A stretch of DNA of 64,000 nt from Roseibacillus sp. (GCA_965242925.1 CBDEUM010000013.1:64001-128000); one strand, 5' to 3'; numbered from the stretch's first letter, positions 48,903 through 55,249 are shown. Translations and numbers: made by a program. Notes: generated by a model not told the origin, from the sequence alone.

Positions 48903-50330
48903 CTATCCCACACTCCCTTCCATCTCCAACTCGATGAGACGCTTGAGTTCCACCGAGTACTCCATCGGGAACTCCCGCACCAGGTCATTGACGAAGCCGT
49001 TCACCGCCAAGCTCATGGCCTCGCCCTCACTCAATCCCCGTTGCTGCAGGTAGAACAACATTTCCTCGGAAACCTGAGAAACGCTCGCCTCGTGCTGGGT
49101 GGCGTGCTGGTTGCCCCGCACCGTGATGGCCGGGTAGGTATCCGTCCGGCTGTTGGTGTTGATCAGCAGGGCATCGCACTCCGTGTTGTTCCGACAACCC
49201 TTAAGGTGTTTGGGAATGTGAACCTGACCGCGGTAGGTCGAACGCCCCTCGCCCACCGAGATCGACTTGGAAACAACGTTGGAGGTCGTCTCGTCGGCAG
49301 CGTGAATCATCTTGGCCCCGGTATCCTGGTGCTGCCCTGAATTGGCGAGGGCAATCGAGATCACCTCGCCCCGCGCCCTGCGGCCCTTCATGACGACTCC
49401 GGGATACTTCATCGTGAGCCGGCTCCCGATGTTGCAATCGATCCAGCGCACTTCTGCGTTCTCGTGTGCGATCCCGCGCTTGGTCACCAGATTGAATACA
49501 TTGTCACTCCAGTTCTGCACGGTAATATACTGCAACTTGGCGTCCTTCATGGCCACCAGCTCAACCACCGCCGAGTGCAGGGTAGCGGTCTCGAACTTGG
49601 GGGCGGTACAGCCCTCCATATAAGTCAATTCCGAACCCTCGTCACAGATGATGAGGGTACGCTCAAACTGACCGAAGTTTTCGGAATTGATCCGGAAGTA
49701 GGCCTGCAGCGGATGCCGCACCTTCACTCCCTTCGGCACGTAGATGAACGACCCCCCCGAAAAGACCGCGCTGTTGAGAGCCGAAAACTTGTTGTCTCCG
49801 GTGGGAATCACCTTGCCGAACCACGGCCGGAAGATTTCCTCGTATTCCTTCAGGCCTTCCGTCGAGTTGACGAAGATGACCCCATCCTTTTCGATTTCCT
49901 CCTTCACGTTGGAGTAGGCCGCCTCGGAATCATACTGAGCCTCTACTCCCGCCAGAAAGGCCCTTTCCTGCTCCGGGATACCCAGACGCTCAAAGGTCTC
50001 CTTGATATCGTCGGGCACCTCGTCCCAGCTCCGGGTCGGCTTCGCCCCATCCGAAAGATAGTAGCGAATGATGTCGAAATCGATGTTCTCGAGATCCTTG
50101 GTGGCCCAGTGCGTGGGCATGGGTTTGGCCAGGAAGGTTTTGAGAGCCCTGTGCCGGAACTTCCGGACCCAGTCCGGATCCTCCTTCACATCGCAGATAT
50201 AGTCGATGGTGGCCGGGCTTAACCCGCGACCCGCATCATATTTGTGCGACTCGGGGTAGGAAAAGTCCCCCTTGCTCTGGTCGATATCAATCGCCACCTG
50301 TGTTCCGGAATCTAAGACTGCTTCACTCAT
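48903..50330 (-). CDS. sufB: Fe-S cluster assembly protein SufB
   Basis: [40 protein letters not shown]...EGSVG. Confidence 0.97.
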
Positions 50331-50354
50331 GATCTTCTCCCTTCATTCCCAGAT

Positions 50355-51110
50355 TTATCCCGCCACCGGCACTTCTTCCTTCAGGAAGTCGTAGCCCTTC
50401 TGCTCGAGCTCAAGGGCCAGCTCCTTGCTGCCACTGCGCACGATCTGGCCGTCCGCCAGTACGTGCACGTAATCCGGTTCAATATAGTCTAGCAGGCGCT
50501 GATAGTGGGTAATGACCAGAAAACCGCGTCCCGGCGAACGCATTGAGTTCACCCCGCTCGCCACCACCTTCAGGGCGTCGATGTCGAGACCGGAGTCGGT
50601 CTCGTCCATCACGCAATAGCCCGGCTCCAGCATCATCATCTGGAGCACTTCGTTGCGTTTCTTTTCGCCCCCCGAAAAACCTTCGTTAACCGAACGCGAG
50701 GTGAACCGCCGATCGATTCCCAGTTGGTCCATCTTCTCGTAGAGTTCCTTGTAGTAGACCACCGCATCAATCTCCTCGCCCTCCGGAAGACGCGCCTGGC
50801 GGGCAGCGCGGATGAAATTTGCCATGGTAACCCCCGGGACTTCCGCAGGGTACTGGAAAGCCAGAAAAAGCCCGGCCCGGCTCCGCTCGTCAATCCCGAG
50901 ATCGAGAAGATCCTCCCCATCCATGGTGACCGTCCCCCCCGTCACCTCGTAGTCCTCATGGCCGGCGATGACCTTGGCGAGGGTGGACTTGCCGGACCCG
51001 TTCGGTCCCATGAGCGCGTGTACTTCGCCGGCGGGAACTTCAAGGCTCAGGCCCTTGAGAATATCGTTGCCGTCAATGGCGGCTTGGAGATTTGTGATAA
51101 CCAGACTCAT
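50355..51110 (-). CDS. sufC: Fe-S cluster assembly ATPase SufC
   Basis: [47 protein letters not shown]. Confidence 0.97.
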
Positions 51111-52642: not shown

Positions 52643-52761
52643 TTTCGTGCGCGCTAGCTACGCCAGCACCGGGGGCAGGTAAAGGGCAAAGGCGGGAATT
52701 CTACCCAAACTACCACCCGGCCGGAGCCTGAAATTGGATTTTGAGGCCGGGACATGTTTCT

Positions 52762-54193
52762 CTACGGCCCCGCTGCCGCCTTCCCAAAGAGGGTAAAGCC
52801 GGTGGAATCCTCGATTTTCACCTCGAAAATCTCCCCTGTCATGCGCTCGCGGTCGCCATCGAAAATGACGATCTTGTTTTGGGTGGTGCGCCCGCTCAGG
52901 CGCTCCTTGTTGGTCTTGCTGGGACCCGAGCAGAGGATCTCCTGGCGCGTGCCGATAAGGGCCGCATTCTTGGGGACCGCGATCTCACTCTGGATACGCA
53001 GCAGTTCCTGGTTCCGCTCTTCCTTCAACCGCTCCGGGAGTTGCCCGTCCATCTCAGCCGCAGGCGTGTTCTTCCGCTTGGAGTAACGGAAGATGAAAGC
53101 TGTTGTCGAACTGCAGGCGTTTCATGCAGTCGACCGTAGCCTGGAAGTCCTCTTCCGTTTCGGTCGGGAACCCGACGATAACATCGGTGGTGATTGCCAT
53201 GTTGGAGCGCACCGCCTTCATCTTCTCGCAGATCTCGATGAATTGCTCATTCCTGTAGGGGCGCCGCATCGCCCTGAGGATGCGATCGCTCCCGCTCTGC
53301 ATGGGAAAGTGAATATGCGAACAAAGCTTGGGAAGATAAGTGAAGGCCGCCACCAGATCGTCACGATAGCCGATGGGATGAGGCGAAGTGAAACGAATGC
53401 GTTTGATCCCCTCCACCTCATGAACTGCCTCGAGAAGCTGCACGAAGGGTGACTTGCCCTCGACTTTCCCGAATTCGGTACGCCCGTAGAGGTTCACGAT
53501 CTGCCCCAGGAGAGTCACTTCCTTGGTGCCCTGCTCCGCCAACTGTCTCACCTCCTCCACCACATCCGCAATGGGGCGCCCGCGCTCCTGCCCCCTCGTG
53601 TCGGGCACGATGCAGAAGCTGCAGCGCATGTTGCATCCCTGCATGATGGACACGAAGGCCGAGGGCTTCTTCCCTGCCGCCACATGATCCCGAATGGTGT
53701 TCTGGCTCCCCTCCTCCGCACCGGTATCCACCAGCTTCCCATTCCTGGTTCCTCCGCCCGGGATCCAGATTCCCTCCTCCTCGACGGTATGCCCCTCCAG
53801 GGACATCGAGGGATCATCCATCCTCTCCTCCATCCGTTTGCGCAGGATGTCATCCACGTAGCCAAAGACCCGGTGGTACTTTTGCGTCCCCACTACCAGG
53901 TCGAGATGGGGGACGCGCTCGAAGAGTTCCTCTCCCCGGCTCTGCGCCATGCAACCCATGAAACCGTAAACCACATGGGCCCGCTTCTCACGGTGCTTAC
54001 CCATCATTCCCATCTTGCCCAGGGCCTTCTGCTCAGCCTGGTCGCGCACCGAGCAGGTGTTGACCAGGATGGCATCGGCATCCTCTTCCGCACGGGTGAG
54101 GGTATAGCCTCCCTCCACGAACATCCGAGCAACCTGCTCGGAATCACGCTCGTTCATCTGTCATCCGTAGGTCTTGACGAATACTTTGGGCAC
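52762..54193 (-). CDS. miaB: tRNA-i6A37 methylthiotransferase MiaB, with in-frame UGA at codon 11 (candidate Sec) and a +1 frameshift at ~53097-53101
   Basis: GTG start: VPKVFVKTYG*QMNERDSEQ; NTCSVR; GCMAQ; radical SAM CNMRCSFC; TDVIVGFP; after the shift FIFRYSKRKNTPAA and a TRAM domain (SGRTTQNKIV). About 476 aa if both interruptions are read through. Confidence 0.9.
54117..54153 (-). promoter_or_regulatory. Candidate bacterial SECIS element in miaB
   Basis: Minus strand ACGAGC-GTGAT-TCCGAGCA-GGT-TGCTCGGA-T-GTTCGT; apical GGU loop about 26 nt after the UGA. Confidence 0.65.
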
Positions 54194-54352
54194 AACTCTC
54201 CCCGTGCATGCTGACGACGGGGCGGAACCCTTAGCGTCTCTGCCGCAAAAGATCAACCTTCGGCTTCCCTCGGCACCGATTGAAGCCGGAGCCGCAATCC
54301 ATGGCATAAGGAGCTCTTTTTCGGCCCTCCCTCGCCCCGGGTTTCTGCTACA

Positions 54353-55249
54353 GTGGCCGTGTTGGCTCCGCAAATCGACATTTTCATCCTCTACCTCGCC
54401 ACCGAGCGTGGGCTTTCGGATGCTTACCAGCTTTCCGTGCGACGCACCCTGGAGACACTCGCCGACTGGGCCCAGAAGCAGAAATTCGCCACCTGGCAGG
54501 ATCTTGGCATCGATTCTCTCAGGGAATTCCTCGCCCAACTGAAGAAGAAGGGCCTGGAGGCCTCCTCCCTCCGCATCGCAGTGGTTCATATCAAGATCTT
54601 CTTCCGCTTCCTTGCCGGCCGCAGCCTCATCGAGGACGATCCCGCCGAGCCTCTCCTTTCCCCCAGGACTGGAAGTCACCTGCCTGAGACACTTCACGAA
54701 TCCCAGATCGTAAGACTGCTGGAATCCATCGACCCCTCCAGGGCGCTCGGTCGCCGCGACCTCGCCATTTTGGAACTCTTCTACTCCTCCGGCCTGCGCC
54801 TCGCCGAAATCTGCTCCGCCCGATTGGAGACGCTGGACCTCGAGGATGGCTTCCTCAGAGTCACCGGCAAGGGCAACAAGACCCGCATCGTTCCGGTGGG
54901 TGGGCGGGCCCGTTCCGCCCTGGAAAGCTATCTGGCCAACGAGCGCCCCAAGCTTGTCAAGCGCCACACTTCCTCCGAGATCTTCCTCTCCGTGCGCGGC
55001 GGACCACTCGGTCCCGATCGTGTCCGGAAAATTGTGAAGGAACGCGCCCACCAGGCCGGGATCAAACAGAACATCTACCCGCACCTCCTGCGCCACTCCT
55101 TCGCCACCCACCTCCTCCAGAACGGAGCCGACCTGCGGGTGATCCAGGAACTGCTCGGGCACGCCGATATTGCCACCACTCAGATTTATACCCACGTCGA
55201 CGACCAGCTCCTGAGGAAGGTTCACCGCCAATTTCATCCCCGGGCGTGA
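54353..55249 (+). CDS. xerD: Site-specific tyrosine recombinase XerD/XerC
   Basis: RDLAILELFYSSGLRLAE, GKGNKTR, PHLLRHSFATHLL, LLGHADIATTQIYTHV, HPRA end. Confidence 0.85.
   Translation: MAVLAPQIDIFILYLATERGLSDAYQLSVRRTLETLADWAQKQKFATWQDLGIDSLREFLAQLKKKGLEASSLRIAVVHIKIFFRFLAGRSLIEDDPAEPLLSPRTGSHLPETLHESQIVRLLESIDPSRALGRRDLAILELFYSSGLRLAEICSARLETLDLEDGFLRVTGKGNKTRIVPVGGRARSALESYLANERPKLVKRHTSSEIFLSVRGGPLGPDRVRKIVKERAHQAGIKQNIYPHLLRHSFATHLLQNGADLRVIQELLGHADIATTQIYTHVDDQLLRKVHRQFHPRA

Follow-up and report, generated by a model that had tools for sequence, protein, structure and literature searches.

A putative selenocysteine codon at an iron-sulfur cluster ligand position of MiaB in marine Verrucomicrobia

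The miaB gene and its in-frame UGA codon

We have studied a gene for the tRNA-modifying enzyme MiaB that carries an in-frame UGA codon at the position of a cluster-ligating cysteine. The gene lies in a 64,000-nucleotide (nt) stretch of DNA from Roseibacillus sp. (GCA_965242925.1 CBDEUM010000013.1:64001-128000), which we call the window, and coordinates are counted within that stretch. The features of the locus are collected in Table 1. An earlier interpretation made from this DNA without database searches (the sequence-only reading) had proposed a miaB frame on the minus strand with a TGA at 54163-54161, and both the frame and the codon were re-read as it described them. The 5′ end of the gene is GTG CCC AAA GTA TTC GTC AAG ACC TAC GGA TGA CAG ATG AAC, which translates as VPKVFVKTYG, followed by the TGA and then by QMNERDSEQVARMF onward.

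The encoded protein is recognizably MiaB. The NCBIfam equivalog model TIGR01574 scores 358.4 bits on the N-terminal 380 codons, passing its cut-off of 355.3, and gives a further 73.2 bits on the C-terminal piece. By Pfam, residues 3-102 form UPF0004 and 181-355 form Radical_SAM, with TRAM in a shifted frame that is discussed below. The best solved relative is the MiaB of Bacteroides uniformis (7MJV, E = 4.4e-68), the UGA codon lying opposite its Cys27. The best named match is a Cys-type MiaB with 78% identity, which places the lineage near Roseibacillus, and the protein is 73-93% identical to Cys-type orthologs within the family. It shares with Cys-type MiaB (TIGR01574; B. uniformis 7MJV-7MJZ) the three-domain architecture of UPF0004, radical SAM and TRAM and the spacing of the six cluster residues. 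It differs from them in having UGA, and not TGY, as the codon for the first auxiliary-cluster ligand, and in that an mRNA hairpin is tied to this codon.

In all methylthiotransferases a second [4Fe-4S] cluster is described as being bound by the motif CysX35-36CysX32-33Cys (PMC5352715). The corresponding spacing in the UPF0004 domain of the present protein is U11-X35-C47-X33-C81; the first position is UGA, and so the motif is complete only if that codon is read as selenocysteine (Sec) or cysteine. The other five cluster cysteines (C47, C81, C187, C191 and C194) are all located and intact, as the earlier interpretation had claimed.

The UGA codon is not peculiar to this assembly. Among the 40 nearest genomes, 12 besides the present one have a MiaB ortholog with a single in-frame TGA, and 29 of 30 ortholog loci gave an N-terminal match, with TGA at codon 11 in 13 cases and TGT or TGC in 16. 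A family sample of 401 genomes contained 368 with a MiaB match at an E-value of 1e-100 or better; a single in-frame TGA was present in 59 of the 150 matches listed, and all 47 further family members that were retrieved carry TGA at codon 11. In total this codon is TGA in 60 species genomes, belonging to six genera of a marine verrucomicrobial family (12 in the same genus, and 37, 5, 3, 2 and 1 elsewhere, G020 included). The conserved TGA/Cys pair that had been sought in relatives is therefore present at a single alignment column, with 60 TGA against 29 Cys codons among the sequences examined. A tree of 25 miaB genes requires six changes of state between TGA and Cys, at least five of which are forced by well-supported branches, and there are sister species that differ only in having TGA versus TGT at codon 11.

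Metagenomes gave a similar picture. A pattern scan returned 101 stretches, 80 of which were taken as loci; 75 of these encode MiaB of this lineage, have the TGA and stay open beyond it. The TGA at 54163-54161 is unaltered in contigs of runs X1, X2 and X4, the latter two from two other seawater studies, thus answering the earlier suggestion that reads be mapped at this codon. A contig of the RNA library X15 covering 54094-54400 also carries the unaltered TGA, and is no proof of transcription. The same run had no coverage of 52700-53326, a result that weighs on neither side. Because the codon is present in 60 species genomes, in 75 of 80 metagenome contigs and in independent seawater contigs, it is not a sequencing or assembly error. 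Nor does it reflect a general reassignment of TGA, which is the commonest stop codon of the genome and ends 600 of 1207 open reading frames (ORFs) of at least 500 codons. This bears out the earlier remark that other genes here end in TGA and that there is no genome-wide recoding.

Four other matches of the metagenome scan (L200, L215, L265 and L274) were rejected as non-coding chance matches. A 1524-base contig, L203, encodes a MiaB of an unrelated lineage, MKKLYIKTYG-[TGA]-QMNVYDSARMADLL, with TGA at the equivalent Cys codon. Only one such contig was seen, and it may represent an error, a pseudogene or a Sec form of independent origin.

We also examined the sequence that precedes the UGA. The start codon is ATG in 50 of the 60 TGA-type orthologs and GTG in the present assembly. 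Conservation ends at this point, the 30 nt 5′ of the start differing in 56 of the 60 TGA-type sequences. Codons 2-10 of the 60 genes exist as 35 nucleotide haplotypes that encode only five peptides. Of the nine columns for each codon position, 1, 2 and 9 vary at the first, second and third positions respectively, and among the haplotypes there are 2765 synonymous as against 197 nonsynonymous codon differences. Judged by this pattern of substitution, the ten codons before the TGA are evidently translated as the normal N terminus of MiaB.

This constraint bears directly on a different explanation of the locus, in which the UGA is a true stop that ends a ten-codon leader, MiaB restarts at Met13 without its first cluster cysteine, and the hairpin regulates re-initiation. 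An in-frame ATG does lie 6 nt past the TGA in every sequence, Q-M-N being part of the conserved motif, and gene callers would give precisely the truncated ORF (53054-54157) that such a restart would produce. However, a leader with five peptides among 35 haplotypes is under strong amino acid constraint as the N terminus of MiaB, which speaks against termination at the UGA with re-initiation at Met13. A protein lacking residue 11 would also lose one of the three ligands described for the auxiliary cluster (PMC5352715), sister species have TGT at this codon, and among the matches listed TGA is confined to genera that possess selA. We consider a stop and restart to be very unlikely, and prefer the reading of codon 11 as Sec.

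Table 1. Positions of the miaB gene, its proposed Sec codon and associated features (window coordinates, except for the paralogs in the last row)
Feature	Position	Strand	Remarks
miaB, read through TGA at codon 11	52762..54193	-	UPF0004 + radical SAM + TRAM; 1-nt insertion in assembly
GTG start codon	54191..54193	-	five bases 3′ of GGGGAGAG
UGA codon 11, proposed selenocysteine	54161..54163	-	slot of first Cys of auxiliary-cluster motif
Whole hairpin including lower stem	54117..54153	-	37 nt; lower stem not Sec-specific
Upper stem-loop of proposed SECIS, Sec-specific part	54124..54142	-	8-bp stem, GGU apical loop
Cys47, second ligand of auxiliary-cluster motif	54053..54055	-	
Cys81, third ligand of auxiliary-cluster motif	53951..53953	-	
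Radical SAM cluster motif CxxxCxxC (C187, C191, C194)	53612..53635	-	
TTT run with one extra T	53096..53098	-	frameshift restricted to present assembly
FG-GAP/ASPIC paralogs (loci L297-L299 among them)	G000 C12:89967, C20:16543, C28:4493, C22:99699, C30:361056, C17:49805, C12:51079	+, +, +, -, +, +, +	

A stem-loop downstream of the UGA codon

A hairpin is found immediately 3′ of the UGA, as expected of a bacterial selenocysteine insertion sequence (SECIS). It comprises a lower stem of 7 base pairs (bp), formed between 54153-54147 and 54123-54117, and an upper stem of 8 bp, formed between 54142-54135 and 54131-54124, with a GGU loop located 26 nt past the UGA. The stems and the loop position that the sequence-only reading gave are all present. 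Its description of the 8-bp stem as perfect holds for one allele; position 54128 is polymorphic (GCT/GCC, giving A-U or A.C) in reads and in 15 of 60 sequences across species, which counts against a simple picture of the hairpin.

The model for bacterial SECIS elements (bSECIS), as set out in PMC13188914, has a loop of 3-9 nt, an upper stem of 4-16 bp, a G in the first two loop positions, a distance of 16-37 nt from the UGA and a minimum free energy (MFE) of -7.5 kcal/mol or lower. The miaB hairpin satisfies these constraints, with its GGU loop, 8-bp stem, 26-nt spacing and an MFE of -19.7 kcal/mol for the 60 nt starting at the UGA. Such an arrangement is rare: 188 of the 141,267 TGA trinucleotides of the genome (0.13%) precede an uninterrupted stem of at least 8 bp around GGT at +18 to +40.

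The hairpin has been compared in TGA-type and Cys-type genes. In the upper helix, pairing extends to 92.6% of cells for 51 distinct TGA-type sequences, compared with 59.9% for 29 Cys-type sequences. In a slide control, shifting the partners by 1-3 columns reduced the overall pairing from 86.7% to 32-41%. The third positions of codons 19 and 20 (GAG CAG) are invariant in the 60 TGA-type genes, while having entropies of 1.0 and 0.99 in the Cys set. At codons 21-23 the third-position entropies are 0.57, 0.81 and 0.53 in the TGA set versus 1.56, 1.58 and 1.66 in the Cys set. Away from codons 19-23 third-position variation is alike in the two sets. The hairpin also contains infrequent codons, namely GTT (17% of Val codons in long ORFs) and GCT (13% of Ala codons), in keeping with the earlier comment that their use in the 3′ arm was less expected. 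Cys-type miaB genes that use TGC have diverged at the hairpin apex.

Covariation had been sought in the hairpin, and one compensatory pair was found. This is pair 24-38, which joins the third base of a Ser codon to the second base of an Arg/Gln codon, and is U-A in 21 sequences, C-G in 17, U-G in 5 and unpaired in 8.

A number of observations weigh against the interpretation of this hairpin as a SECIS, and with it against Sec at codon 11. The folding energy is ordinary for the composition (MFE -22.1 kcal/mol, z = -1.43, with 16 of 200 shuffles as good or better). The lower helix is maintained no less in Cys genes (85.2% paired) than in TGA genes (79.8%). The covariation is thin, since only one of 15 pairs changes on both sides, and eight of 51 sequences are unpaired there. 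Kinship among the compared sequences means that the counts overstate their independence. An Rfam scan of 54050-54250 at the E-value threshold returned no match. Lastly, the full hairpin is retained in some TGT-type genes, five from the same genus and one from another.

Some of these points have a ready explanation. Because the lower stem is equally paired in Cys genes it is not specific to Sec, and follows from conserved amino acids (MNER ... MF). The TGT-type genes with a full hairpin are read as recent switches from Sec to Cys, in line with the six changes of state in the tree. The conclusion that we draw is that the hairpin exceeds chance expectation by virtue of its specific architecture, and not by its folding energy alone. 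Conservation of an equivalent hairpin in Cys-encoding orthologs had been put forward as evidence against a SECIS function. The comparison divides the structure in two, with the upper stem-loop tied to TGA and the lower stem shared equally, and with the TGT genes keeping the whole.

The same data can be set against the possibility that the UGA is read without SelB, by near-cognate tRNA-Cys or tRNA-Trp, to yield a little ordinary Cys- or Trp-containing MiaB. This would leave unexplained both the freezing of synonymous sites at the hairpin apex in TGA genes only and the restriction of TGA, among the matches listed, to Sec-decoding genera, and TGA ends more long ORFs of the genome than either of the other stop codons. 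We regard such readthrough as highly improbable.

Selenocysteine machinery and the integrity of the gene

The assembly in which the gene is found consists of 42 contigs and is 89.9% complete. It was searched for the Sec machinery, as the sequence-only reading had recommended. The genome contains a tRNA-Sec (59 bits against a gathering score of 47, with the anticodon tca by ARAGORN). It encodes a SelB of 653 residues (287.5 bits) with the GTPase domain, the SelB beta-barrel and both winged-helix domains, and also a SelD (366.6 bits, at G000 C14:573883). The selD gene has an in-frame TGA of its own (...LSSCAG-U-ASKLGQ...), and about 35 nt past it lies a stem of 7 bp capped by a GUC loop.

Two properties of the assembly count against a functional selenoprotein gene. 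The first is that selA was not found, either by the family model or by tblastn with SelA of the same genus, so that the search for the machinery was successful for tRNA-Sec, selB and selD only. The 17.5 kb surrounding selA in the closest relative, and 12 kb of another, gave no blastn match in the assembly and two weak tblastn matches to paralogs. Since the whole neighborhood of selA lacks a counterpart, we favor an assembly gap; probably this part of the genome is missing from the assembly and selA has not been deleted. Of the 19 other genomes of the genus, 18 have the gene.

More widely, selA occurs in 123 of 401 family genomes, distributed over nine of 20 genera; Sec use is not unusual in this lineage, a matter that the sequence-only reading had put forward for checking. 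It is present in 56 of the 60 TGA-type genomes, and the remaining four are 72-90% complete. Among the 150 matches listed, no TGA was found in MiaB of genera lacking selA.

The second property is that the miaB copy of the assembly is itself frameshifted. A 1-nt insertion (TT to TTT) precedes the TRAM domain, a feature that the sequence-only reading did not mention. The frame is lost after residue 365 (FDNS, then nonsense), and TRAM resumes in another frame. The extra T is a gap in all 19 other orthologs aligned by blastn (7 alignments inspected), and seawater contigs of runs X2 and X4, 95-100% like the window, lack it. Run X1 contains most of the window and is possibly its source; its contig graph breaks at the extra T, and short contigs without the additional base are present. 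On the strength of the orthologs, the X2 and X4 contigs and the broken X1 graph, we regard the frameshift not as a property of the gene but as either a minor variant or an error of assembly. A one-base length difference between the assembly and the contigs of all four runs is also seen at 54271-54272, in non-coding sequence upstream of miaB, and again points to small indel differences or errors in the assembly.

Taken at face value, the extra T splits off the TRAM domain, and together with the failure to find selA it could indicate that miaB of the present genome is a decaying pseudogene with a true frameshift allele, possibly following loss of selA, in a family that still encodes Sec. Yet the extra base is missing from the contigs of near-identical strains in two other studies, as it is from short contigs of the likely source run at the point where its graph breaks. 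Moreover, no further lesion is seen in miaB, while selB, selD and tRNA-Sec are intact, and what is absent is the entire neighborhood of selA and not selA alone. We judge a pseudogene to be unlikely.

The conserved TGA/Cys pair, the coding constraint on both sides of the TGA, the hairpin tied to it and its restriction to Sec-decoding genera among the matches listed lead us to conclude, on comparative grounds, that miaB is very probably a selenoprotein gene in which UGA codon 11 specifies Sec. This was the inference of the sequence-only reading, and the TGA/Cys pair, the TGA-tied hairpin and the Sec-decoding genera all support it.

The genome was also scanned for an in-frame TGA followed by a stem with a GGT loop, candidates being ranked by codon usage; GGT was required in the scan, and so only the selD hairpin provides an unbiased comparison. 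A gene for an FdhA-type formate dehydrogenase (L296, G000 C22:62350-65202) has a TGA at its canonical site, ...NCSRA-U-HAPTV..., then a short stem with a GGUCU loop. Its domains are Fer2_4, Fer4, Molybdop_Fe4S4, Molybdopterin and Molydop_binding, and it is an expected classical selenoprotein. Seven paralogs of 1200-1400 codons (with FG-GAP repeats, UnbV/ASPIC, AhpC/TSA-like and TPR domains) each contain one in-frame TGA, at the conserved sequence ...DL-[TGA]-S(F/V)(F/Y)WRQVV..., and a 7-bp stem with a GGUCG loop 20 nt past it, with compensatory changes between paralogs. This paralog family is not mentioned in the main text of PMC13188914. Four further candidates (L300-L303) were discarded as chance ORFs with no Pfam match. 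The apical GGU is common to miaB and to the hairpins of the FdhA-type and FG-GAP/ASPIC genes, both of which came from the scan that required GGT, and selD has a GU-containing loop.

The predicted selenoprotein and its genomic surroundings

If codon 11 is read as Sec, translation would start at the GTG at 54193 and meet the UGA at the eleventh codon. SelB carrying Sec-tRNA(Sec) would bind the stem-loop that begins 18 nt past the UGA and insert Sec, and translation would then run on into an otherwise ordinary full-length MiaB. Of the three cysteines that hold the auxiliary [4Fe-4S] cluster in the UPF0004 domain, the first would be replaced by Sec11, giving one selenolate and two thiolate ligands. 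The auxiliary cluster has a part in making the methylthio group and in its delivery to C2 of i6A37 in the tRNA. Insertion of Sec at codon 11, ligation of iron by the selenolate and any resulting benefit are inferred.

The auxiliary cluster of MiaB is partly consumed in catalysis. As to what selenium might contribute, our guess is either a shifted redox potential, or an altered stability or rebuilding of the reaction-damaged cluster, in bacteria of oxic seawater. What the auxiliary cluster does in sulfur insertion is described as a matter of long debate (PMC10813225). With a Sec ligand on this cluster, if confirmed, selenium could serve as a spectroscopic handle, and near-identical enzymes forming a natural Sec/Cys pair would be available for comparison.

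The gene can be compared with known selenoprotein genes. Like bacterial genes that have a SECIS within the ORF read by SelB, it has a UGA at a Cys position and a stem-loop just downstream within the coding region. It differs from them in the position of the proposed Sec codon, which lies no more than 11 codons from the start. Two radical SAM selenoproteins appear in the table of PMC13188914, namely the TIGR04167 family and TrsS (NF045646). These have the combination of radical SAM and Sec in common with the MiaB proposed here, but they are other families, and neither is among the NCBIfam matches to MiaB. In formate dehydrogenase, [NiFeSe] hydrogenase subunits and HdrA (discussed in the same source), Sec replaces a metal-ligating cysteine, as is proposed here for MiaB; unlike those, the site in MiaB would belong to the auxiliary cluster of a tRNA-modifying enzyme. 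About 20% of selenoprotein families are given there as having a predicted capacity to bind atoms or chemical groups, some 70% of these being metals or Fe-S clusters.

A full-text search of the literature did not find MiaB as a selenoprotein; the matches listed, judged from their entries, concerned the modification of tRNA-Sec or were general reviews. A similar search for selenoprotein families with SECIS in Verrucomicrobia gave no match. Neither MiaB nor methylthio occurs in the main text, family table included, of the 2026 review of prokaryotic selenoproteomes (PMC13188914); within that text, the remark in the sequence-only reading that MiaB is not known among the classical selenoprotein families is borne out. 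On the comparative sequences we regard as real a conserved Sec/Cys pair in a housekeeping tRNA-modifying enzyme, served by ordinary bacterial Sec machinery, for which there is no prior description in the literature searched. If this is correct, MiaB would be the first enzyme of tRNA modification, and also the first methylthiotransferase, known to contain Sec, and a housekeeping gene would be added to the selenium demand of abundant marine Verrucomicrobia. Standard gene callers are expected to report such miaB genes, in at least 60 species of marine Verrucomicrobia, as N-terminally truncated or broken.

A dependence of MiaB on Sec could also couple the supply of selenium to decoding, creating a feedback loop between the selenoproteome and tRNA modification. 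A shortage of selenium would lower the production of MiaB and leave its tRNA substrates at the i6A stage, and the reading of UGA and other codons starting with U would be altered. The tRNAs with ms2i6A37 read codons that begin with U, and the E. coli list includes tRNA-Cys and tRNA-Trp (PMC5699536); these two are the near-cognate competitors at UGA. We offer this coupling as speculation, and think it rather doubtful.

The surroundings of miaB in the window are as follows. A 358-codon ORF at 54161-55237, which enters the TGA in frame, is spurious and was set aside, as it overlaps an xerD-like gene on the opposite strand. That gene is the divergent neighbor of miaB, at 54353-55249 on the plus strand, and encodes a tyrosine recombinase of the XerD/XerC type (NF001399, 309 bits). 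On the other side, about 2 kb past the 3′ end of miaB, ORFs on the minus strand at 48903-51110 resemble SufC and SufB, as judged from their translations alone.

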